Positions 2,723 through 64,000 of a stretch of DNA of 64,000 nucleotides are shown here, in pieces (the first letter of the stretch is position 1; every line of letters begins with the position of its first letter). The translations under genes and the position numbers were made by a program. Location: IMG/VR virus record IMGVR_UViG_2829740473_000003, positions 3,016-67,015 of that record. One strand, 5' to 3'. The notes beneath the pieces were generated by a model. It searched no databases, was not told where the DNA came from, and worked only from the letters and a program-made list of their open reading frames with translations. The stretch is from a virus. Taxonomy: Duplodnaviria; Caudoviricetes.

Positions 2723-3045
2723 GCCGAGATCCTTACGTTGGCGGCGCCCGAGAAGTCAGCGCCGGCGGTCCACCGCCAGCTGACACCCGCCTCGCTCTCC
2801 TCGGCCGGCGTGCAGCCGATGCGCTTGGCGACATAAAGCTGCGTGTTGCCCACCACGATGGGCACCCAGTTGACGCCCCCATCCGGCGAGCGCTCGAGGT
2901 AGAGCGAGCCGGTCCACGAGGAGCCGGGAAGCACCCATGCGGAGAAGGGCCAGGAAACAAGCCCGCCCCGCCTGCTTTCGCTGGGGGTGAATGGCGCGCT
3001 GCTCCCCGGGCCGGAGAGCGTGGCCTGCACTGCGTCGATGCTCAT
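2719..3045 (-). CDS. Hypothetical phage protein (108 aa, beta-rich)
   Basis: ORF with a 4-bp overlap into the SGNH gene; GGGAG RBS upstream. Confidence 0.65.
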   Translation of the reverse strand: MSIDAVQATLSGPGSSAPFTPSESRRGGLVSWPFSAWVLPGSSWTGSLYLERSPDGGVNWVPIVVGNTQLYVAKRIGCTPAEESEAGVSWRWTAGADFSGAANVRISA

Positions 3046-39914: not shown

Positions 39915-39929
39915 GTTCTCATTTCGTTC
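39915..39929. promoter_or_regulatory. Alphaproteobacterial LexA box
   Basis: GTTC-TCATTTC-GTTC. Confidence 0.75.
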
Positions 39930-47707: not shown

Positions 47708-47826
47708 TTAAGGTTATCCCCCACGCTCGTGATCGCTCAATAGCAAAACGCTCATGTTCACTGGTTCTTTTTCAGCGGCGGACATTTTGCGGATGCTGTA
47801 CGATACCGATGATTTCCCCGGGCGTG

Positions 47827-47841
47827 GTTCCTCGGTGGTTC
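47827..47841. promoter_or_regulatory. LexA box upstream of integrase B
   Basis: GTTC-CTCGGTG-GTTC, ending 23 bp before the ATG at 47865. Confidence 0.55.
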
Positions 47842-47864
47842 CCGTTCGCTACATAGGCCATTGG

Positions 47865-49163
47865 ATGGGCACGAAAATCACTAAGCGGGCCGTAGACGCC
47901 CTAAAGCCGACGGCGCAGGAGTATTTTACTTGGGACTCTGATTTGCCGGGCTTTGGCGTCCGCGTCCGTCCGTCGGGGGCCATGAGCTACGTCGTGAAAT
48001 ACCGCGCGGGTAAGGGACGCTCCGCGCCGACGCGGCGCGTGACGATCTCTGCAGTAGGCAAAATCACACCTGAGGAGGCGCGGGAGCAGGCGAAGCGAGT
48101 TGTCGCTGACGCGATGCGGGGCAACGACCCTGCCCGCGAACGGGCTCGTGAGCGCGGCGCCCCTACCCTTTCGGCTCTTGCAGATCGTTTCCTTGCGGAA
48201 CATGTCGACGTGAAGCGGAAGGCCAGCACCTCAGTTGGCTACCGGGGCATCGTCGACCGCGATCTAAAGCCAGCGCTCGGAAGCCGAAAAGCCGAGACCA
48301 TCATCCGGGCCGACATTGCGCGACTGCACAGCGACATGGCCGATCGGCCCATCCAGGCAAATCGAATGATCGCAATCGTGGGCAAGCTATACGCTTGGTC
48401 TGCAAGCCGGGGGCTGACTCCGGAAGGCGTAAACCCCGCTCGCGGGATTGAGAAATATCGAGAGAGCGGGCGGGAGCGTTTTCTGACTGCCGAAGAGCTC
48501 GGGCGCCTCGGCGCAGCGCTGGAAGAAGCGGAGACCGTCGGCCTCCCCTATGTGGTTGACGAGGGGGGCCCGAAGGCCAAGCACGCACCAAAGGCCGAAA
48601 ACCGCAGGGTAACTCTCGGCCCCCATCCGGTGGCCGCATTGCGGTTGCTCCTATTCACCGGCGCGCGGCTCAGGGAAATTCTGCATCTGCGCTGGGAGGA
48701 GATTGATTTCGAACGCGGCCTGGCCTTCCTGCCTGACTCGAAAACGGGACGAAAACCACTTGTCTTGAGTTCGGCTGCGCTGCGAGTGCTGGCAGCCCTT
48801 CCGCGCGTCGGCCAATTTGTGATTGCCGGCGACAGTGAAGATCAGCCCCGGCGCGATCTCAATCGCCCTTGGATGGCGGTTCGGCGGCGGGCCAAGCTGG
48901 ACGGGGTGCGCCTCCACGATCTTCGGCATTCCTTCGCCAGCGTCGGTGCCGGCGCCGGCCTCGGGCTGACGATCGTCGGTAAGCTTTTAGGCCACGCTCA
49001 GCCGTCCACAACAGCCCGCTACAGCCATCTCGACGCTGACCCTCTCCGGCGTGCTGCGGACTCGATTAGCGACAAGATCTCAGCCGCGATGAGCGGAGCA
49101 AAAGCCGCGGACGTTGTTCGGATTAACACCCCCGACGGGCAGCCTCGCAAGATCGTGAGCTAG
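47865..49163 (+). CDS. int: Tyrosine integrase of element B (P4-like, N-terminal arm-binding domain)
   Basis: KITKRAVDAL..WDSDLPGFGVRV; TGARLRE, HDLRH, LGH..TARY motifs. Confidence 0.92.
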   Translation: MGTKITKRAVDALKPTAQEYFTWDSDLPGFGVRVRPSGAMSYVVKYRAGKGRSAPTRRVTISAVGKITPEEAREQAKRVVADAMRGNDPARERARERGAPTLSALADRFLAEHVDVKRKASTSVGYRGIVDRDLKPALGSRKAETIIRADIARLHSDMADRPIQANRMIAIVGKLYAWSASRGLTPEGVNPARGIEKYRESGRERFLTAEELGRLGAALEEAETVGLPYVVDEGGPKAKHAPKAENRRVTLGPHPVAALRLLLFTGARLREILHLRWEEIDFERGLAFLPDSKTGRKPLVLSSAALRVLAALPRVGQFVIAGDSEDQPRRDLNRPWMAVRRRAKLDGVRLHDLRHSFASVGAGAGLGLTIVGKLLGHAQPSTTARYSHLDADPLRRAADSISDKISAAMSGAKAADVVRINTPDGQPRKIVS

Positions 49164-50127: not shown

Positions 50128-50165
50128 AAGGCCCGGCGCGCTGGAGAGAGAGCGAACCGGGCCTT
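50128..50165. promoter_or_regulatory. Hairpin upstream of the primase gene
   Basis: AAGGCCCGG-N20-CCGGGCCTT. Confidence 0.4.
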
Positions 50166-50262
50166 GATGGTGGTTGAACATGACAAATGTAGACGAATTG
50201 CTCCGAGCAGGCGAGCAACATTTTCAGGCGCCGTGCGCTCTTCTTGCGCGAGGAGCCACAGA

Positions 50263-52923
50263 ATGACCATCAACCTCGTCGACATCCTGAACGACCACGC
50301 CGCCAATTTGGTTAAACAGAAGGCCCGTCAAGCGGCGGCGGCGGCAGGGATCGAAGCACGTTTCGCCGCGGCGCGCTCATCGCCGCTCCCCGAGGCCGCG
50401 GTTGATGAATACGGCTTTGCCGAGCCTGCTGGTGTGCCGGAAGACTTGGCCGAAGCCGCGCCCCCGGCCCGCGCCCGGCAAGACACCGTCAGCGACCAGA
50501 GCGCCACCCCCATGCTCGACCATGCACTCGCGGCGGCGCGCCGCGGCATTCGGGTCATTCCGATCCCAGCCAACAGCAAGGCGCCGGACCTGCCGAAGTG
50601 GCAGGAGAAGGCCACGACCGATGAAGCCCAGATCCGCCGGTGGGCGGAGGAACACCCGGGCTGCAACTGGGGCGGGCTGACGGGCTGTATCCTTGATTTC
50701 GACGTCAAGCACCGCAAGCGCGGCGCCGAGATGTTCGATCTCTTCCAGATGCTGTTCCCGGGCACGTACACCCAGCGGTCCGCGTCCGGCGGGTATCACA
50801 TGTTCTTCCGCCCGCCAGAGGGCGCGCCGCCCATCTCCAACGCCACAGGAAAGCTGCTCGCGAAGTTCGGCAAGGACTGCGGCATCGACGTCCGCGGCGC
50901 GGCCGGCCAGGTGGTGCTGGCGGGCTCCGTCGTGGACGGGAAGGCCTATGAGGTGGTCGACGACCTGCCGATCGCCGAAGCGCCGGAGGACCTGCTGGCG
51001 CTATGCGGGAAGGAACGGCGGAAGGATGGGGTCGGCACTGCCGAGGGCATCTTCGCTGACCACCCAGCGGACGTGGCGCGGGCGGTGGCGCTGCTGCGAG
51101 ACGCGGAGCCGGCGGTCGAAGGACAGGGCGGGGACCAGGCCACGTACGACCTTGCGTGCGAGGTGCGCGACCGCGGCGTGAGCGAATCGACCGCGTTGCA
51201 GCTGATGCTCGATCACTGGAACGAACGCTGCGAGCCGGTGTGGGAGGTGGAGGACCTTGCTACGAAGGTCAGCAACGCCTATGCCCACGCGAAGGACTAC
51301 GCTGGGAACAAGTCGGTAGCGGCGGACTTCGGGGCGCCGGACCCCGAGGCCCAGGAGCGGGTGGAGGCGTCGGAACCTCCCTGGGGCGATTGGCCGGAGC
51401 CAGAGGACCTTTGGGCCGACTCGCGCCCGCCTCCCCGCCTGCCGCCGGGCTTGCTGCCCTCCGTTCTCGAGCGCTGGGCCCGAGACGAAGCTCTCCGCAT
51501 GGATGACACCGACCCGGGGTGCTTCGCAGGGGCCGCTCTGTCCACGCTGAGCGGCATCGCGCCGGCGAGCCTCGAAGTCCAGGTCCGCCAAACGAACACT
51601 GGGTTCAAGGTCCGGCCGATCCTCTGGTGCGTTCTCGTGGGGGCGCCCGGCGCAAGGAAGACCCCGACCTTGAAGGAGGCGTGGAAGCCCGTCCAAGGCA
51701 TTCAGGGGCGGCTAGACGCTGCTAACCGCAAGGCGCGCGAGCAGCACCACGCCGCGCTGTCGGCAATGGGCAAGCAGAAGACAGGCACTCTGGGAGCGCC
51801 ACGGCCGGAGAGACCGCGACAGTCCTTCGTGTTGATTGAGGACGCGACCACTGAGGCGGTCGCGCGGGCGCTGGCGGAGAACGGCCAAGGCGTCGCGTGC
51901 TGCGTCGATGAGCTCCGCGGGTGGCTGTGCGGCTTTGATGCATACCGCGCAAACGGCAAAGGCAAGGACGCCGGCTTTTGGCTCAAGGGCAAGGACGGTT
52001 CGCCCCACCGGGTGCTCCGCGTCGGAAGCGACCCTATCGAGGTTGTGTCTGTCGCGGTCAGCGTCTGCGGCGGCATCCAGCCGGAGGTGCTCCGTGGAAT
52101 GTACCGTGACTTAGGCGCCGACGGCATGCTCCAGCGCTTTCTGGTCTTTCACGTCGCCAGCCCCGTTTCGGAACACGACCTCGCGCCCGACCTCGACGCG
52201 ATCGCCCGGTATCGGGCTGTGGCGGAAAAATTGTGGGAATTGCGCGGCGCCGGGGAATTCATGCCGTCTTTCCGGTTCGCGCCGGAGGCAGATCGGTTCA
52301 GACGTGAGGTTGTAGCTTTCCAGCAGCGCGAGATCCGCGCCCCCGACGCTCCGGCCGGACTTTGCGGCTGGCTCGACAAGCTCGAAGGCGAATGGGCCCG
52401 CATCGCATTGATGTTTCACCTGATCGATTGGGCGGACGGTGTCGAAAGCGACGCTCTCGACCTGCCACTTCGCGAGATCGGTCCTCTAAATGCCGAGCGC
52501 GCCTTTCGCTTCCTGACCGAGTACGTCTTTCCGCATGAGCTTTTCGTCCACCGGTGCGCCGATGGCAGGCGGGGCCCTGATTCCGATGCCGTATGGATCG
52601 CCGGGTACATTCTCAGCCACGAGAGCCTGGAAATTCGCCAGCGCGAAATCCTGAGAGCGAACGCGTCCCTCAAGAAGTTGCCACTCGAGGCGCAGGCGAG
52701 ACGTGTGGCAATAGCCATGGGCGAACTTTGCGAGGCGGGATGGGCACGGCGAGCGGAAGCTCAAAACGGTTCCGCGCCCTGGACCATCAACCCCGCCGTC
52801 CACCAGCGCTTCGCGGATATCGCAGTTCGGGAGCGAGCTCGCCGAGCGCATGCTCGCGAAAAAATCAGCGAAGCGGGCGCGGCTCGACGTGCCATCCGCG
52901 ATTTAACCACCGGGGGCACCTGA
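50263..52923 (+). CDS. Bifunctional primase/polymerase fused to a DUF3987 NTPase (replicase)
   Basis: Prim-Pol motifs VIPI..SKAP..W..ATTD..DFDVK..SGGYH; VGAPGARKT Walker A, CVDEL Walker B, G.LQRFL. Confidence 0.85.
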   Translation: MTINLVDILNDHAANLVKQKARQAAAAAGIEARFAAARSSPLPEAAVDEYGFAEPAGVPEDLAEAAPPARARQDTVSDQSATPMLDHALAAARRGIRVIPIPANSKAPDLPKWQEKATTDEAQIRRWAEEHPGCNWGGLTGCILDFDVKHRKRGAEMFDLFQMLFPGTYTQRSASGGYHMFFRPPEGAPPISNATGKLLAKFGKDCGIDVRGAAGQVVLAGSVVDGKAYEVVDDLPIAEAPEDLLALCGKERRKDGVGTAEGIFADHPADVARAVALLRDAEPAVEGQGGDQATYDLACEVRDRGVSESTALQLMLDHWNERCEPVWEVEDLATKVSNAYAHAKDYAGNKSVAADFGAPDPEAQERVEASEPPWGDWPEPEDLWADSRPPPRLPPGLLPSVLERWARDEALRMDDTDPGCFAGAALSTLSGIAPASLEVQVRQTNTGFKVRPILWCVLVGAPGARKTPTLKEAWKPVQGIQGRLDAANRKAREQHHAALSAMGKQKTGTLGAPRPERPRQSFVLIEDATTEAVARALAENGQGVACCVDELRGWLCGFDAYRANGKGKDAGFWLKGKDGSPHRVLRVGSDPIEVVSVAVSVCGGIQPEVLRGMYRDLGADGMLQRFLVFHVASPVSEHDLAPDLDAIARYRAVAEKLWELRGAGEFMPSFRFAPEADRFRREVVAFQQREIRAPDAPAGLCGWLDKLEGEWARIALMFHLIDWADGVESDALDLPLREIGPLNAERAFRFLTEYVFPHELFVHRCADGRRGPDSDAVWIAGYILSHESLEIRQREILRANASLKKLPLEAQARRVAIAMGELCEAGWARRAEAQNGSAPWTINPAVHQRFADIAVRERARRAHAREKISEAGAARRAIRDLTTGGT

Positions 52924-54783: not shown

Positions 54784-55419
54784 CTACGACTCATTTTGAA
54801 GGGTCGTGCTCAGGGGCTCGGCAATCGCGACACTAACATCTCCGTTCGTTGAAGTCTTCAGAATACAAAGAATAATACGCCCATCAAGTCTGTTAATGTG
54901 ATGCGACTCTAGCAATCTAATCAATTTATTTGTGTATAAAACTAGATCGTCAATTTCGTACTTGATCGGATATTTTGGTTTAATTAATTTTTTTAGGCTC
55001 CCCTTGTGCAATATATCCCCGCACTCTCTCACCAATTTGATCATTTCATCTTTTGTAAGATATGGCTCTGTCTTTGGGGTTATATTGTTTAGTCGTCCAT
55101 TTTCCGTTCGGACGTGGGGGGTTGGGAAGAAATCGCTGTGAAGATCTGAAAGTCTATTTATTATTTCATCAGCTGCGTACTTTTTTCGTAAATCAGAAGA
55201 TTGTGTTGCTTTAATATCTTCATGGGCAACGAGACAGCCAAGCGCTACAAGTTCGCAAATCATACGAAGTTGTAAAAAGCCAAACTCTCTTCGTATTGGA
55301 AATGGAAATAGGAGTGGGTGCGCTAAAAGTTGATTAATAGCTCCAATCCTAACCTTCACTTCATCCATCAGCGATGCGTATAAATCGAGAGACTGTTGTA
55401 CGGGATCATTTTTTGCCAT
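54784..55419 (-). CDS. AT-rich helical protein, HEPN-like
   Basis: LQLRMICELVAL and RECGDILH (R-x6-H) motifs; 2-nt gap after SRAP. Confidence 0.55.
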   Translation of the reverse strand: MAKNDPVQQSLDLYASLMDEVKVRIGAINQLLAHPLLFPFPIRREFGFLQLRMICELVALGCLVAHEDIKATQSSDLRKKYAADEIINRLSDLHSDFFPTPHVRTENGRLNNITPKTEPYLTKDEMIKLVRECGDILHKGSLKKLIKPKYPIKYEIDDLVLYTNKLIRLLESHHINRLDGRIILCILKTSTNGDVSVAIAEPLSTTLQNES

Positions 55420-55421
55420 TT

Positions 55422-56195
55422 CTACTCTCGAATGATATTTCTCGACAGATCAGCTGCGCCTTGCTTCTTAAGCTCAGGTGTTGCGTCGCTTTTTACGCCC
55501 CGCGCCACGATCTGCAGCGCGCCAGCAACTAGCGGGCGCTGCAATACCTTCGCATCCTGCCATGGCGCCGTCATCCAGATTTCTATCTCCTCCGGCTCCG
55601 TGAGGATCACCGGCATCGCCTTCGGGTGGATGCTCGCGACCGGCTCGCTCGGCTCCGTGGTGAGAAACCCGAACAGGTCGATGGTCTCCACGCCAGTCTT
55701 GATCTTGCGGACGCAGGTCCATCCCGTCGTCCAGATCCCGGCGAACACGGCCAGCGGGCGTTCTTCCGAGAACGCGAACCACACGTCCCCGCCGGCGGCC
55801 TTGTTGAATTCGCTGAAGCTGGTGAACGGCACGACGCAGCGGTTCGCCGGCCCCAGCCACCGCTGCCAGTGCTTGCTGCTGGTGTTGCGGATGTTCGTCG
55901 TCCCGGCGTCCGGTTCCAGGCGCAGCAGTTCCTTGAAGTCAAAGGCCTGCCCCTTGGCCTCCAACTTCGCGGCGCGCTTCTTGGCCGCCTCCATCAGCGC
56001 CAGCTGGGATGACGGCATGCCCCATCGCGCCATAGCGATCTCGCGCGCGCCGTCGGCGCCGGTCCGCACGATGGGCGCCTCATAGTCCGGGAAAATGCCC
56101 GGCTGCGGCGGCAGGTTGCCCACGAGGCTCCGCGTGGCGCGCACCAGATCGATGATCGCCTGAACGTTGGAGGTGTGGCTGTAGAGGTTGCACAT
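55422..56195 (-). CDS. SOS response-associated peptidase (SRAP/HMCES family)
   Basis: N-terminal MC, RWGM, RCVVP..F.E, AGIWT, LTT....V..IH..MPVIL. Confidence 0.92.
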   Translation of the reverse strand: MCNLYSHTSNVQAIIDLVRATRSLVGNLPPQPGIFPDYEAPIVRTGADGAREIAMARWGMPSSQLALMEAAKKRAAKLEAKGQAFDFKELLRLEPDAGTTNIRNTSSKHWQRWLGPANRCVVPFTSFSEFNKAAGGDVWFAFSEERPLAVFAGIWTTGWTCVRKIKTGVETIDLFGFLTTEPSEPVASIHPKAMPVILTEPEEIEIWMTAPWQDAKVLQRPLVAGALQIVARGVKSDATPELKKQGAADLSRNIIRE

Positions 56196-56251: not shown

Positions 56252-56266
56252 GTTCTCTTTTCGTTC
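56252..56266. promoter_or_regulatory. LexA box between divergent SRAP and small genes
   Basis: GTTC-TCTTTTC-GTTC. Confidence 0.8.
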
Positions 56267-56300: not shown

Positions 56301-56516
56301 ATGACCATGTCGAGCGAGCCCCAGCCCGCCGAGCAAACCCCTTTTGACGTCAGCGATGCAGAGATTGAGGAGGCCTTGGCGGCTTGCGACGGCGATCCGC
56401 GGGCGACGATCCGCGCGCTCCTCGTCGGCCAAGCCTACCTTGAGCACGAGATGTCCCGCCTCCAGGCGGACGCGTCGTCGGGCTTCCGCCGGCGTCGCCA
56501 CGCTCTTGGGGATTGA
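56301..56516 (+). CDS. Small conserved protein (CDGD.RATIRALL family)
   Basis: GGAG RBS; divergent from SRAP across the LexA box. Confidence 0.7.
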   Translation: MTMSSEPQPAEQTPFDVSDAEIEEALAACDGDPRATIRALLVGQAYLEHEMSRLQADASSGFRRRRHALGD

Positions 56517-56517
56517 G

Positions 56518-56742
56518 GTGGGCCGCCGATCCAAGCGGTATTGGAGCTCGGCCGACCGAGAGGCCTTCATCGAGGCTGTGGGGGCGGTCCGCCATCGCAT
56601 CAGCGCCCTGATGAGCACTTGCCCTATTGGATCTCCGGAATACCGTGCGCTTTCGGACCTCATGGAGGCGGTGAACGCGGCGGGCAGATTCCTTGATCTG
56701 AAATGGACCCATCCAGGAGGCAACCAGTTTCAAGGAAAATAG
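56518..56742 (+). CDS. Hypothetical protein (74 aa)
   Basis: GTG start 1 nt after the upstream stop. Confidence 0.45.
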   Translation: MGRRSKRYWSSADREAFIEAVGAVRHRISALMSTCPIGSPEYRALSDLMEAVNAAGRFLDLKWTHPGGNQFQGK

Positions 56743-56960
56743 ATGAACGACCAGCCTTGGACCTCGCCCGACGCGCCGCGCTGGAAGCGCTGGGCAGGGA
56801 ACGCGATCCTAGTGTTCTGCGTGGTTGGGGCGTGGATCCTCCTTCTCCTCGACCCGATCGTTCGGCTGTGGCGGTGGTGGTTCGGAGTCTGACGTCCCGG
56901 CACCGTCGAACGCCGTCTCGGCCGGTGATAGCCTCCCGTCACCACCTGTGGGAGGGAATC

Positions 56961-57203
56961 ATGAAGACGCTCGCAATCGCGCTCGCCCTGCTGTCGCTTT
57001 CTGCCGGAGCCGCCTCGGCGGACACCTGCGTTGCCAATGCCGACGCGAAGAAGCTCGCCGGCGCGGCGCGCACCAGCTTCCTCTCCAAGTGCCAGAAAGA
57101 TGCGGCGGTGGCCTGCAACACCCAGGCGGCTGACAAGAAGCTACAGGGCGCGGCCCAGACCAGCTTCACCACCAAGTGTGTGAAGGATGCTGTGGGGCAG
57201 TGA
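56961..57203 (+). CDS. PsiF-repeat secreted protein
   Basis: Signal peptide plus two C..A..KKL.GAA..SF..KC repeats; GGAGGG RBS. Confidence 0.8.
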   Translation: MKTLAIALALLSLSAGAASADTCVANADAKKLAGAARTSFLSKCQKDAAVACNTQAADKKLQGAAQTSFTTKCVKDAVGQ

Positions 57204-57636
57204 CGGCTAAAGGTGGCTGCAGCGTCGCGCTTTGCTTCGGCCGGCCTCGTCAGCAGCAGCAAGGGCCCTTGGCGCCGTGGTTGTGCCGGCGGTCGGCTGA
57301 GCTGCGAAGCGGTCGGCCGGCCGGATGACCGCTCAAAACGTCGACAAGCTTGTACGCATCATCTGGGCCGGCGGCACGCGCGCCTCGGCCGTCGCGCCTC
57401 CGAATGCCGTGCAGCTCGTCGCAGCGAGGAGCCGCGACGGTGTGGCCGGCGCCATCATCATGGACGGCAACAGGCGTTGAATTCTTGGGTTCAAATCAGC
57501 GACCAGGTCGGAGCGTGTAGGCGATGCGGTCGAATGGCGTGGCGCGCGCAAATCACAATGGCCGACTTACTTCGTTCCCTTGAACGTGACGGCGCTGTCT
57601 TAATTGGCGTCCGATCTGGAGGCGGTCGACTTTGAT

Positions 57637-58227
57637 TTAATCAACAGCGCTTCCAGGCTGACCCTCGGTAACGGGGCTCTGCAGCTTAATGTCAGAATTT
57701 GAGGCACGGGCCTCTCTATGAATTTTTCCGAAATCGAACGTCGAGAGATCGACTATGCCGCCGGATTCAAACAAATAGACCAAATCCGCCCTAGCTTTCT
57801 CCCGATTATTCTTCTGCCAGTAATCCTTTTCTTTCGTTACGTCTGAAAAGCCGATAACCGCATGAGCGCAATAATCTTCAAGGCCGTCATCGATCACGCA
57901 AAATGTTCTGCGCCCATCTATTGCCAGATCTCTGATTCTAGAGCATATAACCGAAAAGCCGCCGACTAACTGTCGCTCCGAATTCTTTTCCAACTTCGGG
58001 TTCACGATTCGATCGAATACTTCCGAGCTTTCCGAATATTCGACCCTGCAAACCGAAAGACTGCAGCTCTTTAGATCGCTTTTCTTGAACGCTGTAGCAG
58101 CTATTTGCCCATCATTGATATCGTCTGGGTCCAGAAGGACGTAGAGAATTCGTTCGTGGCCTTCCACCACACAAGGCGAGTGCTCACTTTGGGTTTGCGC
58201 TTCTTTCGGGCAAGCCTCGCAAAGCAT
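57637..58227 (-). CDS. Putative ART/RES-like toxin, gene 3 of a three-gene operon
   Basis: E.I...LL.P..DG.I...AF..LSV.R..G....IR..D...AHAVI pattern. Confidence 0.5.
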   Translation of the reverse strand: MLCEACPKEAQTQSEHSPCVVEGHERILYVLLDPDDINDGQIAATAFKKSDLKSCSLSVCRVEYSESSEVFDRIVNPKLEKNSERQLVGGFSVICSRIRDLAIDGRRTFCVIDDGLEDYCAHAVIGFSDVTKEKDYWQKNNREKARADLVYLFESGGIVDLSTFDFGKIHREARASNSDIKLQSPVTEGQPGSAVD

Positions 58228-58230
58228 CCA

Positions 58231-59019
58231 TCAAAACTCTTTCAGATAGGCGACCAAATCGGCGGGTGCTCCCCCGGGAATCCTACCCTCGGCCTCCCCG
58301 GGAACAAAACCTTGCCCGAGCCTAAAAGTGTAGCCGAAAGACTGATCGCCCTCAAAAGACACCAGCGCATGCCGCTCGCCATCTCGCCACTCTAAAACAA
58401 TCTCACCATCAGACCCGACGGAGCAGCGTGGAAGCGGCAAGGGTGGCGAGTCGGCAAGGAAGTGACGAACATCTGCCAGTGCGCGGCGCAATGCTGCAAC
58501 GTCTTCGATGTTGCGGCGAGACCTCATCCGAGCGTCGAGCGCGGACAGTATATGCTGATTTACGGAGGGAGCGGCGGTCTCGCTTCCAACGATGCCCAAC
58601 GACTTCGATGCGGAGGACGTCAGGGCCACAGCTCCGAGCAATCGTAATTTGAGCTCCCCCCAGCTCACCTCTTCAGGCGCGGCCAACCGACGCATTTCAT
58701 AATCCGTGGCGAGCTTCACGACGCGGACTGCAAGTGAATAGCCTACGCTAGCGGCCACAGCTTCAACGGATCGAGAACCCGCCTCATCAATCTCCAAGAA
58801 GCGACGGACAGGAGGCGCAAATTCTGCGTCGGCGCGCGTTTCGGCCGACAGCCGGACGATCGTCCTGAATAAGCCGCCGCTCCCGAGGTCTGTCGACGAT
58901 GTCTCATCGCAACCATAGACGACGATATCAGGGTCCACGCTTGCCGCTAGCCCACCCGTGACGCAGGCAGCCAGCAGGCCTTCAGGCGCTGCGAACTGAG
59001 GCGTGGAGGTCATCGGCAT
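58231..59019 (-). CDS. Putative antitoxin, gene 2 of the operon
   Basis: Low-complexity N-terminus; C-terminal PLP.C....DGEIVLEW..SF.GD..Y domain. Confidence 0.55.
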   Translation of the reverse strand: MPMTSTPQFAAPEGLLAACVTGGLAASVDPDIVVYGCDETSSTDLGSGGLFRTIVRLSAETRADAEFAPPVRRFLEIDEAGSRSVEAVAASVGYSLAVRVVKLATDYEMRRLAAPEEVSWGELKLRLLGAVALTSSASKSLGIVGSETAAPSVNQHILSALDARMRSRRNIEDVAALRRALADVRHFLADSPPLPLPRCSVGSDGEIVLEWRDGERHALVSFEGDQSFGYTFRLGQGFVPGEAEGRIPGGAPADLVAYLKEF

Positions 59020-59765
59020 TCACCCTTTTCAGCATTTTCGCACAGCAAATCCACGAGCTCGTTATAGATAGCTAGCGCCTCCGACTTTTCAATCTCTTTA
59101 GCGTTGCCCTGAGATGTATTAATATCAATATCGATGTGAACAAATACTTCCCTCCCGGGAAGCTGTGTAGCCTCCCCAGAAGAGGACAATTGAGCGGCGA
59201 TTATTGTCGGTATATTGAACCCTGTTATCCTATTTATTATTCCATCTGGAGCTTTATTTGAGGTGACGGCCCAATTGACCTTGTAGATCACCTCTCTCAT
59301 TCGCTTAGGGTCAACATTCAGAGAGGAAGTAATCTCAGATAGGGCTTCGTATGCTTGTTCTACAGATTCGGCTGGAATAAAAATTCCTGCCCCTACAGCC
59401 AGCCGACTATAGCCATGTAAATCCGAGTTTATGATACTTTTTGACATATCAGTGAACTTCGGAAGTTCGTCAATAAAAAGGGGGTTGTCACTCGAAAAAA
59501 GGTCACCCGCTGTTGAGCTTGCGGCCGGGCGTCGAAATATATCCTTCCGGCCCGGCGCCTCTAACAGCTCCAGAATCCCCCCTATAGGAAGCTCAACTCC
59601 CCGCCGGCGAGTACCGTCCCGCGGTCGCTGTTCGTCGAAATCCGGCGTGTCCGGGAAAACCGCGGGCCAAATGTCGCCTACCGAGCTACCTAGGCCCACG
59701 CCCAAGAGCGTAAGGCGTAGCTGGTGCACGCGAACCGAAGAAAGCTCCCACAAATTTGACCCCAT
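59010..59765 (-). CDS. TIGR04255-like protein, gene 1 of the operon (start may be 59792)
   Basis: About 250 aa, RLAVG and C-terminal IDIDIN motifs; 10-bp overlap with gene 2; AT-richer. Confidence 0.5.
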   Translation of the reverse strand: MGSNLWELSSVRVHQLRLTLLGVGLGSSVGDIWPAVFPDTPDFDEQRPRDGTRRRGVELPIGGILELLEAPGRKDIFRRPAASSTAGDLFSSDNPLFIDELPKFTDMSKSIINSDLHGYSRLAVGAGIFIPAESVEQAYEALSEITSSLNVDPKRMREVIYKVNWAVTSNKAPDGIINRITGFNIPTIIAAQLSSSGEATQLPGREVFVHIDIDINTSQGNAKEIEKSEALAIYNELVDLLCENAEKGECR

Positions 59766-60490
59766 TCGAGCAGCTCCAACGACCAGCGCCAATTGATACC
59801 ATATGCAGGTGGCGCCGCCAGATTAACATCTGCCGCACCCCTTGAGCGCCCCCATGCCCCGGTCGGCGTGACTTTAGCAACGGCTAATCGGAGATAGAAC
59901 CCATCCTGCGGGTCTCGTCTAGGATGTCCGCCCAACGCTGCATCATCCCCACCCGCCATTTCCAATGTTCGCCGCGGGCGTAGGGCCGACACATGTCGTA
60001 CCTCCACACGGGGCAGCCGCCGCTCGATTGCGTCGGGGTTCCACAGTCCACTTTCGTTCAACAGCGTCGACGCCGTGGCTCGGAAGCCGTGCGCCGCCCG
60101 CCGTGGCCTATTGAGGGCGGGGCAAAAGAGAGGAGGACGTCCTAAAGGACGCTATCGCAGGGACCGCTGCGGACGATGCTGGTGATCTCCCAATCGTCGG
60201 CTGTGGCGTTCGCGACCTTCCGTCGGGGCTTGTGTTCACCATGATCCGGCAGGTCGTCGACGAAGCCACCGCCGGCGCGACGGCGATCCCATAGCGATCG
60301 TTGTAGGCGGGAAGCCCGACCGTCACTGTCGGGCCGGCCCCCGGGAAGGGCCTTCGGGTCTAGTCGAAGATGGACCCCGCTCGATTGGCCTGGAAGCCTG
60401 TCGACTCCCCCGCCGCATCCTACCTACCTGCTCCTCCCGATGTTCGACATGAGCGGAGACCGCCGCCAGCTCACCCATGTCGCGCCGCCT

Positions 60491-60802
60491 CTATCGCTTC
60501 TTTCGCGGGGGCGGAGCGATCCGGCGTATTAGCAGCATGCGCTTTATGACGTGCTGCGCCTCGGCGTCCATAAGATGGCGAAGGCCGACTGAACGTGGGT
60601 CGCCGCCATCACCCAACACTTTCCAGCACAGGACGGCCGCGACGTGCGTGTCATCGAACCTCCTGTGCCCGCCAGGTGTCATTTCTGGCTCATGGAGCCA
60701 ACCATTCCCGACCCACGTCAGGATTTTATATGAGGGCACGCCTGCGATCCTGGCCATAGCCGGCAGGGTGTAGGTTCGATTGAATGCCGGTCGCCGTTTC
60801 AT
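60491..60802 (-). CDS. MerR-like HTH protein, paralog 2
   Basis: YTL..MARIAGV..I..W...GWLHEPEMTPGGHRRFD. Confidence 0.75.
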   Translation of the reverse strand: MKRRPAFNRTYTLPAMARIAGVPSYKILTWVGNGWLHEPEMTPGGHRRFDDTHVAAVLCWKVLGDGGDPRSVGLRHLMDAEAQHVIKRMLLIRRIAPPPRKKR

Positions 60803-61173
60803 CGTGGTCTCCGAGCGGCGGCACGCTTCTCACGTGCAGCGATGAATTCCAGAAGCCGGGCGCGGATGAAACGACGCGCTTCCAACTCCTCGGGTGTAGG
60901 GGGAGCCTCTGGCGGCTTCGGCGGGGGCGACGGGGGCTCATGCAACGTTCGGTATCGACCGAGGATTGCAGCAACATGCGTCTCATCGAACCTCCTGTGG
61001 CCGCCCGGCGTCCTGCAGGGTTCGTGAAGCCATCCCTCCTTCAAAAAGCCTTTGATCGTGTTGGGATGCATCCCCACAAGTCGCCCAAGCTGCCGCGTCG
61101 TGTACAGCCGCGGCTGGCTTCCGCTGCCTTCAGAACCGTGATGATCTGCCTCAGCGTCGTGAGCCTTGATCAT
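60799..61173 (-). CDS. MerR-like HTH protein, paralog 1
   Basis: YTT..LGRLVGMHPNTI..GWLHEPCRTPGGHRRFD. Confidence 0.75.
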   Translation of the reverse strand: MIKAHDAEADHHGSEGSGSQPRLYTTRQLGRLVGMHPNTIKGFLKEGWLHEPCRTPGGHRRFDETHVAAILGRYRTLHEPPSPPPKPPEAPPTPEELEARRFIRARLLEFIAAREKRAAARRPR

Positions 61174-64000
61174 CGCTCGGCTCCATTCCTTCTCGGGCCC
61201 CCTCGGCGCCGGCGATCAGCCGCAGGAGCTTCCCGTTCCAGCGCTGCGTCCCCACGTCGTTGGCGTTCCGCGTGAGCAGGTGCATCGCGAGCTCGGGGTC
61301 GAACATCATCCGGGTGACGAGGCGCTGGGGCATGCTTTCCGTGTGCGCATCCGGACCAGCCGCCACCTTCAGCGTGCGGGTAATGCCGCCGCCTTTCAGC
61401 ACGCCGAACGTTGCCTTGAGGCCCAGCTCGATCGCTCGCCAGAAACCGCTGTTCGCCGAATCCACCGAGCCCGGCATCGCCTTTGGCGCCTCCCGCGCCA
61501 AGGGCTCGAGCATCTTCTGCGCACGTCGGAGCGCGTTCATCTGCTCGGGACTGTAGACCTGCGCCAGCGCCCGTTCGTACTGCCGGAAGGCCTCGGCGAG
61601 GCGTCGGTACTCGGGCGCGAAGTCGCCGTCCGTCACCTTCCCGGGCGAGGCGGTCGTCACTTTCTGGATCAGGCGCTCCGACACGGCCCGCTGCCAGGCG
61701 AGCCGCGCCTCCGGGCTCTGCGATACCGTCGCCATGACCTCGCGCATCGCCCGCTCGGGATCGCCGCTGTCGAGGACTGCAGCGGCCGCCTTGGTCGGCT
61801 CGCGGCCCAGCACGAGCGAGAGGCCCGAAGCGTCCACGTCGGCCTGCGTCCGCTTCAGCTGCGCGCCGGCGCGCTCGACCTCCCCCGCCATGCGGTTGCG
61901 CGTCGCGCTCCCGGCGCGGATGTCGGTCAGCAGCTGCGCGACCTCATCCCGGACCCGAGGAAACTGGGACAGCGCCTCTCCCCAGCCGCTCGGGCCGTTC
62001 AGCCAGCGCGCCAGGGCGTTCTCGTGGATGCGGCCATCCCGGCCAATGGTCCGCGTCAGGTCGCCCAGGACGTAGGTGCGCACCGCGCTCTCCGCGGCGG
62101 CGCGGTTCGTCGGATCGGCGATGGACCCCACCACGCGGGATAGCGCCTCGGCCTTCTCCCGCGCGCCGGCGCCGGTGGACAGGAAGCGGCCGGCCGTCGC
62201 CGTTGGCGCCGCGGCCGTGCGGTGGAGGCGGTCGACGTTCAGGTCCTGCCGGAACCCGTACGCCTCGCCGGCGCCGCGGCCCCACACGGGCGCATAGACG
62301 TTCTCGAAATGGCTGACGGCGGCCTGCGCTTCCGGCTGCTGGTTGGTCGCCCGGTTGATCTCCACGCGAAGCCGCTCGAGGTTGTCGAGGTACGGCGTCG
62401 GCGCGCCGTCCTTCCGCGCCCGGGCGATTTCGGCCGCCAGGATCGGCCGCAGGTCGTTGATCGTGCCGAAGGTGACGTCGTTCACGCCATTGATCCGCCC
62501 ATCGGCGTCGCGCCGCAGGAGGCTCTCGAAATCCTGCAGCCACTGCTCGGGCAGCACCTCCCGGCGCGCGTTTTCCGGCAGGTGCTCGGCGGCACGGCGG
62601 ATCCCGGCCGCGGTCTCGACGAACGGCCGGCCCGGCACGGTCGCGTCGCGCGGCACGGCGTCAAACGCCGCGCGGCGCTCAGCGTCCATCGGCTCGAGGC
62701 TGCCCTGGACGATCGAACGGTCAAGGCTGGCGCTCGCATCGCCCTGGCGGCCGGCGAAGGGCGCCACCCGGCCGGCAACGTCGCGCTGTCCCTGCTCGGC
62801 CTGCGCGAGGCGCGCCTCGGCGGCCTGCAGCTCGCCCGAGGCGGCGTTCACCCGGTTGTCGACTTCTCGCCGAACGAATTCCGTCGCCGCGCGAGGGTCG
62901 GCGCCGAGCGGGACGTTGCTCTCCAGCTCGCCCATGGCGGCATCGCGGAGCGAGACGTCCCTCTGCGCGAACGGGGCCGGGTTGCGGTTCCGCTCGGCCG
63001 CTGCGATGGCCGCGACGCCCGGATCCTCCGAGAGCGCGCCCACCGACGGGAGCGGCGCACCCATTGCGCGATAGTCGTTGGCGTTGGCCGCGATGTTCTC
63101 GGCAGCGGTGGAGGGCTCCGACGCATTGCCCTGGACGTACCGCGCCGCCTGGTCGGCGTCACGGTTGCGCGCCCAGCGGCCGGTCTCGGGATCAATCGGA
63201 ATATCCGACGCCCGGGAAAAGCCGCGGGCGGTCGACAGTGCCGCCTTCGGGAGGCCGGTGGCGATGTTCGAGGCAACGCCTCCGGCCGTGCCGCCCAGCA
63301 GCATGCCGAGCACGTCAGTGATCGCGCCGGTCGCCGCCGCCGTGGGGCTCGACTTCCGCGCATCCTCGGGAAGCAGCTCCTCGGATACGGTCTTCCCAAG
63401 GCCAGCACCGACGCCGGCGGCACCTTCGCCGACCACCGTGCGGACAGGTGCGGCGCCGTAGCCTGCCAGCAGGCTGTCGAACGCCTGCGGCAGTCGCGCA
63501 ACCACCGGGGCTGCGCGCCCGACTGCAGCCGGCACCATGGCCCCGGCCGTCAGCGCTCCGAGCGTGCCGAAGGCGTTGGCGTTGTAGACCGCCTTCTCCC
63601 CGGGGGTCATTTTCTCGGGGTCGTGCACTTGGAGTCCGGCGGACTGCGCGGCGTTCCCGGCAAGGGACGTCAGCATCTCGGAAGGCATCTTGAATCGGAA
63701 CGGCACGCGGCCGAGCCCGGTCTTGTCGCCGATCCAATCCGCGCCGGAGAGCAGCACATTGGCGCCCATGTTCGCCAGATCGAAAGGTTGCCCGACGGCC
63801 ATGCCGATGCCACGAGCGGCGCCTTGGACGCCGACCCCCAGATCCAAACCGGCCGGCGCCGGCGCGCTTGCGACCGTGGGGCCGGGCCGCGCCGCGGCCG
63901 GCTGCGAGGGTTCGTCGAACCGATCGAAGAAATTCGGCTTCGGCGGTTCGGTCACCGGGGCTGCAGGAGCGACGTCGAACTGATCGAAGAAGTTGGGCAT
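61151..64000 (-). CDS. Large phage DNA-ejection / internal virion-type protein (ATG falls on the window edge)
   Basis: 949 aa; tandem N-terminal NFFD(Q/R)FD motifs, Gly/Ala-rich hydrophobic helices, then long amphipathic helical body. Confidence 0.65.
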   Translation of the reverse strand: MPNFFDQFDVAPAAPVTEPPKPNFFDRFDEPSQPAAARPGPTVASAPAPAGLDLGVGVQGAARGIGMAVGQPFDLANMGANVLLSGADWIGDKTGLGRVPFRFKMPSEMLTSLAGNAAQSAGLQVHDPEKMTPGEKAVYNANAFGTLGALTAGAMVPAAVGRAAPVVARLPQAFDSLLAGYGAAPVRTVVGEGAAGVGAGLGKTVSEELLPEDARKSSPTAAATGAITDVLGMLLGGTAGGVASNIATGLPKAALSTARGFSRASDIPIDPETGRWARNRDADQAARYVQGNASEPSTAAENIAANANDYRAMGAPLPSVGALSEDPGVAAIAAAERNRNPAPFAQRDVSLRDAAMGELESNVPLGADPRAATEFVRREVDNRVNAASGELQAAEARLAQAEQGQRDVAGRVAPFAGRQGDASASLDRSIVQGSLEPMDAERRAAFDAVPRDATVPGRPFVETAAGIRRAAEHLPENARREVLPEQWLQDFESLLRRDADGRINGVNDVTFGTINDLRPILAAEIARARKDGAPTPYLDNLERLRVEINRATNQQPEAQAAVSHFENVYAPVWGRGAGEAYGFRQDLNVDRLHRTAAAPTATAGRFLSTGAGAREKAEALSRVVGSIADPTNRAAAESAVRTYVLGDLTRTIGRDGRIHENALARWLNGPSGWGEALSQFPRVRDEVAQLLTDIRAGSATRNRMAGEVERAGAQLKRTQADVDASGLSLVLGREPTKAAAAVLDSGDPERAMREVMATVSQSPEARLAWQRAVSERLIQKVTTASPGKVTDGDFAPEYRRLAEAFRQYERALAQVYSPEQMNALRRAQKMLEPLAREAPKAMPGSVDSANSGFWRAIELGLKATFGVLKGGGITRTLKVAAGPDAHTESMPQRLVTRMMFDPELAMHLLTRNANDVGTQRWNGKLLRLIAGAEGAREGMEPSDDQGSRR

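Follow-up and report, generated by a model that had tools for sequence, protein, structure and literature searches.

In a 64,000-nucleotide stretch of viral DNA (Duplodnaviria; Caudoviricetes) that covers positions 3,016 to 67,015 of the IMG/VR record IMGVR_UViG_2829740473_000003, and which we call the window, three genes are packed together on the minus strand as an operon. We refer to them as g1, g2 and g3 in the order in which they are read. A sequence-only reading of the window had proposed that they form a candidate anti-phage system ending in an ADP-ribosyltransferase (ART)-like toxin, and the analysis described here followed up that proposal. In window coordinates, the features of the operon are:

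59010..59765, minus strand: g1, an open reading frame (ORF) for a 251-residue protein from a rare family without a name; it could also start at TTG 59792 or GTG 59729
58231..59019, minus strand: g2, an ORF for the 262-residue middle protein, a putative antitoxin or adaptor
58231..58572, minus strand: C-terminal domain of g2 (about residues 150-262), with the motif DGEIVLEW...FEGDQSFGY and without WDG
57637..58227, minus strand: g3, an ORF for a 196-residue putative toxin with a predicted ADP-ribosyltransferase-like fold
59766..60490, no strand assigned: region of about 725 bp 5' of the operon, without a credible gene, the expected place of a promoter or operator

The three ORFs share one strand and lie where they had been placed (59792/59765-59010, 59019-58231 and 58227-57637). 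The overlap between g1 and g2 is 10 bp, as claimed, and would be 4 bp (ATGA) if g2 begins at its second ATG, 59013; the 3-bp gap between g2 and g3 is also as described. Translation of g1 most likely begins at ATG 59765, with a GGAG 8 nt ahead of it, and one public annotation calls the same 251-residue form; 59792-59010 is the longest form, counted from the first TTG. The operon is indeed AT-richer than its surroundings, with a GC content of 0.50 for g1, 0.60 for g2 and 0.48 for g3 against 0.646 for the window, and with a GC content at third codon positions (GC3) of 0.50-0.62 against 0.78-0.87 in the neighbouring genes. Composition is uneven even inside g1, where the first 285 bp have a GC content of 0.61 and the other 471 bp one of 0.43, a mosaic that may be a trace of module shuffling. 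These are three tightly packed, real genes that are foreign in composition.

The last protein, g3, has no Pfam or NCBIfam family at an E-value of 1 or less and no PHROG match. Its own family is nevertheless sizeable: a HMMER scan of 1.84 billion representative proteins returned 210 relatives at E≤1e-3, of which 83 reach E≤1e-10, so that the family counts at least 210 clusters at 50% identity. Most of these relatives are 160-180 residues long. In an alignment of 58 of them, C6, E9, E25, S58, R61, R99, C110, D113 and H122 are invariant. When distant relatives from genomes are added, for 76 sequences in all, E25, S58, R61, R99 and H122 stay invariant, and D113 (74/76), E9 (73/76), C6 (72/76) and C110 (69/76) are nearly so. 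Five invariant residues of this kind are a pattern typical of an enzyme. The short motifs that had been picked out by eye, AF (46-47), LSV (57-59) and AHA (121-123), are all present and coincide with conserved positions; S58 and H122 never vary, and among the closest relatives L57, V59, A46, F47 and A123 are conserved or nearly conserved. Other routes to relatives gave nothing: g1, g2 and g3 each retrieved nothing but themselves from a word index of 5.8 billion proteins, tblastn of g3 found no match in 72,556 plasmids and 50,697 phage records, and a pattern scan of genome contigs for g3 relatives found none, although a profile search of genomes did.

What fold does this family adopt? An AlphaFold2 model of g3, built from the alignment of its relatives, is an alpha/beta protein of high confidence (predicted local distance difference test score, pLDDT, 91.6; predicted template modelling score, pTM, 0.82). 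E25 lies just before strand 1 of this model, and S58 and R61 lie on strand 2. Foldseek with the model found nothing in the PDB or BFVD, and a profile of 58 family members found nothing among PDB sequences at E≤1. A structure search gave weak matches, of which at least 28 of the best 50 are ART-fold proteins (Tpt1/KptA, DarT and pertussis-like toxins), with no single match significant by the search tool's own measure. Because the composition of this hit list cannot be chance, even though each match taken singly is weak, we regard an ART-like fold as the most plausible reading of g3 and do not extend this reading to its chemistry. The RES/ART-like fold put forward earlier is thus supported by the make-up of the hit list, and not by any individual hit. 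The serine on strand 2 fits the R-S-E motif of ARTs, and the other residues are off the canonical order. Tpt1/KptA and DarT, the nearest structural neighbours, act on nucleic acids, and from these nearest shapes one might guess that the target of g3 is a nucleic acid.

The middle protein, g2, has no Pfam, NCBIfam or PHROG match either. It had been described as having a flexible N-terminus and a compact domain around DGEIVLEW, and its AlphaFold2 model agrees on both counts: the N-terminal half is not modelled (pLDDT below 50 over most of residues 4-148), and approximately residues 150-262 are modelled with confidence (pLDDT 84-95). The C-terminal domain is predicted to open with two helices, followed by a sheet of five strands and a last helix. 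Foldseek with the g2 model found no match. Twenty aligned proteins of the g2 family show the same division: their N-terminal parts vary, and their C-terminal domain is conserved, with the pattern GWDG...P...DGxIxLxW...F.GDG..Y. Within the family the WDG motif is conserved to at least 90%; the g2 of the window lacks it through an 8-residue gap.

The pairing of g2 with g3 is conserved. A g3 profile run against two samples of 400 genomes each, one from the phylum and one from the order, found homologues in 6 and 14 genomes, respectively. Directly upstream of the g3 homologue there was a g2-like gene in every one of the 18 loci first examined, and across related loci the spacing between the two genes runs from -22 to +36 bp. 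The upstream partners resemble the C-terminal 90-100 residues of g2. Adjacent small genes that stay together as a pair and sit on mobile DNA, as these do, are a trait of type II toxin-antitoxin systems.

In most related loci the pair is led by a third gene, and the trio recurs in many genomes. At 15 of the 18 loci first examined, a gene for 265-330 residues precedes the pair, usually with a 4-bp overlap, and all 15 of these first genes score above the NCBIfam cut-off for TIGR04255 (best E 2.9e-24). Two further loci are led by TIGR04255, and the first gene is a TIGR04255 protein in 17 of 22 related loci overall. One of the two is on the 39.7-kb viral contig IMGVR_UViG_3300022739_000006 (L094:3435-5486), where the TIGR04255, g2-like and g3-like genes come directly after tail-fibre-like and lysis-like genes. 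Terminase, head-tail connector, tape-measure, DNA methylase and resolvase genes are among the neighbours of the related loci; together with the setting of the window, these contexts place the cassette on mobile elements and prophages. Three loci (L011, L013 and L008) have the pair only. A separate locus (L012:3853-7870, genome G170) has four genes: in place of TIGR04255, an AAA_21 (AbiEii-type) ATPase and a Tle1-like/DUF2235 hydrolase stand ahead of the g2-like/g3-like pair.

A g2 profile search of the order added eight loci. Six of them (L086 and L088-L092, in six genomes) are trios of a first gene, a middle gene for 160-180 residues with WDGY, and a third gene for 146-168 residues. The first proteins of these six begin with a PPLNEVVLGVQF-like motif, and we take them, from this motif, to be TIGR04255-like. 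Their third genes form another small family with the pattern IRRISP...GMSVD...YHGEVW. We considered these as relatives of g3; the alignment looks sensible, the hhalign probability is only 3.7%, and the connection stays a lead. In the literature search, no paper found names TIGR04255; one on HicA (Gerdes 2024, PMC10865869) makes no mention of it and has no bearing on the g3 toxin.

The protein encoded by g1 departs from this scheme. It had been called TIGR04255-like, a label that did not hold up: g1 has no NCBIfam match at E≤1 and does not reach the curated cut-off of 30 bits, TIGR04255 run against the whole genome in six frames gave nothing at E≤10, and hhalign against 15 true members of that family gave probabilities of 0.1% or less for g1, alone or together with its homologue. 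Pfam, NCBIfam, PHROG and PADLOC have no match for g1, and searching PDB sequences with the TIGR04255 profile found no solved structure of that family. By any sequence test, then, the g1 of the window is not a TIGR04255 protein, and because these tests are negative the label fits the relatives rather than g1 itself. That the first component is not SecB does stand, as neither Pfam nor NCBIfam has a SecB match for it.

We found one true homologue of g1 among the 400 genomes of the order, in Mesorhizobium sp. B2-4-15 (E 1.1e-14, 29% identity, full length). Pattern scans for g1 returned only this locus in genome contigs and none in metagenome contigs. The Mesorhizobium locus (L060:6135-8086, NZ_VFUZ01000030.1) is also a trio, of a g1-like protein of 242 residues, a g2-like protein of 247 residues and a third protein of 162 residues. 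Its g1 homologue overlaps the g2-like gene by 10 bp, and the g2-like protein has DGAIALEW and keeps WDG. The idea that its third protein is a g3 relative was not supported (hhalign probability 0.3%; hmmsearch E 5.5). Since this locus retains g1 and g2-like genes and differs in the third gene, g1 travels with g2-type genes and not with g3. By its place ahead of the pair, g1 fills the position taken by TIGR04255 proteins in related cassettes.

We also looked upstream of g1 for control elements. A consensus scan found no promoter-like site in 59766-60490, and Rfam has no match across 56500-61200; an imperfect palindrome lies at 60051-60086. SOS control of the operon was considered and set aside, there being no GTTC-N7-GTTC box near the three genes, and no LexA-type box was found in the 725 bp upstream of g1. 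The window as a whole has five such boxes against 1.84 expected, among them 56252-56266, 47827-47841 and 39915-39929. Because 4 of 100 shuffles reach five or more, the count alone is not significant.

The operon shares its element with genes for integration and replication, and its best explanation is as cargo on an integrated element. The neighbouring features are:

47754-49163: tyrosine integrase, same element as the operon
50164-52923: Prim-Pol/DUF3987 replicase, same element as the operon
55422-56195, minus strand: SRAP/SOS-response peptidase gene (PF02586, E 1.3e-17)
60491-61173: two tandem MerR-type helix-turn-helix (HTH) genes, same element as the operon and just upstream of it

Two other genes of this neighbourhood may be mentioned. 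At 54784-55419 on the minus strand, 2 nt after the SRAP gene, is a gene for 211 residues with a GC content of 0.40 and a GC3 of 0.37, which matches phrog_13799 (E 3.3e-15, function unknown). This AT-rich gene looks like another foreign cargo gene of the element; we compared it with the ORF upstream of the Mesorhizobium trio and found no similarity. Directly upstream of the MerR genes, an open-ended ORF of at least 949 residues runs over 61151-64000 on the minus strand; it is rich in alanine and glycine, has a GC content of 0.72, and has no Pfam or PHROG match.

The cassette was compared with described systems. Among the closest are the TIGR04255-led cassettes themselves (a TIGR04255 protein, a WDG middle protein and a small ART-like protein; 17 loci), which have the same g2 and g3 families in the same order and with the same tight coupling. 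They differ from the window in that its first gene belongs to an unrelated rare family and its g2 lacks WDG; as judged from the sequences, what sets the window apart is a first gene outside TIGR04255 and a g2 that has lost the WDG motif.

The sequence-only reading could match the operon to no named system. This is true of the window itself in so far as its only PADLOC match is a weak one, of g3 to PDC-M32B (E 1.1e-3, 17.5 bits), and it is not true of the relatives: 9 of 58 g3 relatives match PDC-M32B (best E 6e-6) and 9 of 20 g2 relatives match the C-terminal third of PDC-M32A (best E 2.4e-9). PDC-M32 is one of 145 untested ‘guilt-by-embedding’ defence candidates in PADLOC, which were picked out for lying inside BREX, DISARM or type I restriction-modification (RM) loci (Payne et al., bioRxiv 10.1101/2024.01.29.577857), and a Sinorhizobium prophage is reported to carry it (PMC12429752). 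Like the g2-g3 pair it has a partner gene followed by a small enzyme-like gene. It comprises only two genes (A of about 375 and B of about 123 residues), whereas the window has three with a separate first protein; the matches are remote and partial, and neither g1 nor the TIGR04255 proteins match PDC-M32A. The cassette is therefore a remote relative of PDC-M32 and not a member.

CmdTAC offers a functional parallel. In that system CmdT ADP-ribosylates mRNA, CmdA is the antitoxin, and CmdC is a SecB-like chaperone that senses a phage capsid protein. The trio resembles it in having three linked genes, one ART-fold toxin (here predicted), a partly flexible middle protein, an accessory third protein and mobile carriage. 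It differs in having no SecB-like protein, no similarity to the three Cmd proteins (PADLOC, Pfam), and a different gene order and set of families. We found no evidence for the CmdTAC-like sensing that had been proposed, and sensing by the first protein is pure conjecture.

We also compared the trio with two-gene ART or NADase toxin-antitoxin and effector-immunity pairs (DarTG, ParST, Xre-RES/MbcTA and TreTu-TriTu). It differs from them in that g2 has no macrodomain, Xre HTH or DUF2384; g3 has no DUF4433, RES or ART match in Pfam and a different motif order, and the window has a third gene. For DarTG in particular, the trio contains neither a DarT (DUF4433) toxin nor a macrodomain antitoxin. 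From Tpt1/KptA, g3 is set apart by an identity of 6-9%, by having no PF01885 match and no N-terminal RNA-binding lobe, and by its context, a mobile toxin-like cassette rather than a housekeeping one. By analogy, the system plausibly works like DarTG, ParST and CmdTAC, yet in its components it belongs to none of them.

Taken together, these observations lead us, with a confidence a little above even, to read the trio as a horizontally acquired toxin-antitoxin-like cassette, carried as cargo by the integrated element, with g3 as an ART-type effector. The reading draws on the arrangement of the genes and their foreign composition, on the fact that both the g2-g3 pair and the trio are conserved, on fold likeness, and on mobile and prophage contexts. 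A toxin-antitoxin-accessory arrangement is plausible, and from it we infer the toxicity of g3, neutralisation by g2, the use of NAD, a role for g1 and a part in defence. In such an arrangement g3 would be an effector enzyme with a scaffold of the ADP-ribosyltransferase type. Left free, it would be harmful, and it would most likely use NAD+ in modifying a cellular target or depleting it. The neutraliser or adaptor would be g2, made together with g3 by translational coupling, whose C-terminal alpha/beta domain and variable, probably flexible N-terminal half would keep g3 inactive. As an accessory in the TIGR04255 slot, g1 would presumably stabilise, regulate or trigger the g2-g3 pair. Release of g3 upon loss of the element, stress or phage infection could then stop growth, and this would serve maintenance of the element, abortive infection or both. 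A stronger proposal is that the first slot is exchangeable, with the g1 family doing the TIGR04255 job and setting what is sensed, that g3 represents a new clade of ARTs that ADP-ribosylate nucleic acids, and that the whole is a new tripartite abortive-infection system; we regard this combination as rather unlikely.

Several observations weigh against the toxin-antitoxin reading with an ART-type g3. No ART, RES or DarT-family sequence model in Pfam matches g3. Neither of the canonical orders, R-S-E and H-Y-E, is reproduced by its invariant residues; at residue 29, the beta-1 position on strand 1, the family has Y, R, F or H. C6, C110, D113 and H122, invariant or nearly so, might rather belong to a metal site or a Cys-His-Asp centre. 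A Pfam scan gives g2 no recognisable DNA-binding domain, and we identified no promoter or operator 5' of the operon. PADLOC would not call a system here, as the g2 of the window has no match at E≤1 and g3 reaches only E 1e-3.

The points about g3 bear on the possibility that the cassette is toxin-antitoxin-like and g3 is not an NAD-dependent ADP-ribosyltransferase, acting by other chemistry (as a Cys-His-Asp hydrolase or transferase, or as a metal enzyme) or by binding alone. We consider this unlikely. The cysteines of g3 are not strictly invariant, the structural hit list is overwhelmingly one of NAD-using enzymes, and the invariant serine and arginine on the second core strand (LSVxR), with a further invariant arginine, fit NAD-phosphate binding as in ARTs. 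We give similar weight, again well below even, to the idea that g1 is no working part at all, such that the functional unit is the g2-g3 pair and g1 is a neighbouring cargo gene that has replaced a lost TIGR04255 gene. The two-gene forms at L011, L013 and L008 and in PDC-M32 would be explained in this way, as would the absence of detectable similarity between g1 and TIGR04255. The GC mosaic (0.61 in the N-terminal and 0.43 in the C-terminal part of g1) hints at recombination, and the family is very rare, with one homologue in the 400 order genomes and none in the metagenome pattern scan. What speaks for g1 as a component is its 10- or 4-bp overlap with g2, and the Mesorhizobium homologue, which has the same position and the same 10-bp overlap on a g2-like gene even though the third gene there is different.

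It is also conceivable, though quite improbable in our view, that the cassette serves neither addiction nor defence and is an accessory operon of a prophage or mobile element with another role. It might, for instance, modify a target in the host or in a competitor so that the element benefits, and g2 would then be a chaperone or partner and not an antidote. A g2 that lacks a DNA-binding domain and an operon in which no autoregulatory operator was found would suit such a role, and the site beside tail and lysis genes on the viral contig is also typical of lysogenic-conversion genes. Yet the genes are small, an enzyme-like protein is strictly paired with an upstream partner, and the distribution is sporadic (6/400 phylum and 14/400 order genomes). 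Methylase and resolvase genes are found as neighbours, the related PDC-M32 was found inside BREX, DISARM or type I RM loci, and we saw no signal peptide and no secretion-associated neighbour.

If the toxin-antitoxin reading with an ART-type g3 is correct, a functional context would be gained for three families that lack annotation, namely the g3 family of at least 210 clusters, the WDG-motif middle protein and TIGR04255, and the ART-based toxin-antitoxin and defence repertoire of DarTG, ParST and CmdTAC would be extended by a tripartite toxin system that is mobile and widespread. PDC-M32 would gain a structural hypothesis, in which its B protein is an ART-fold effector. The window itself is a natural swap, in which an unrelated first gene accompanies the usual g2 and g3 families, and it could be used to probe whether the first component acts as a chaperone, a sensor or a regulator.

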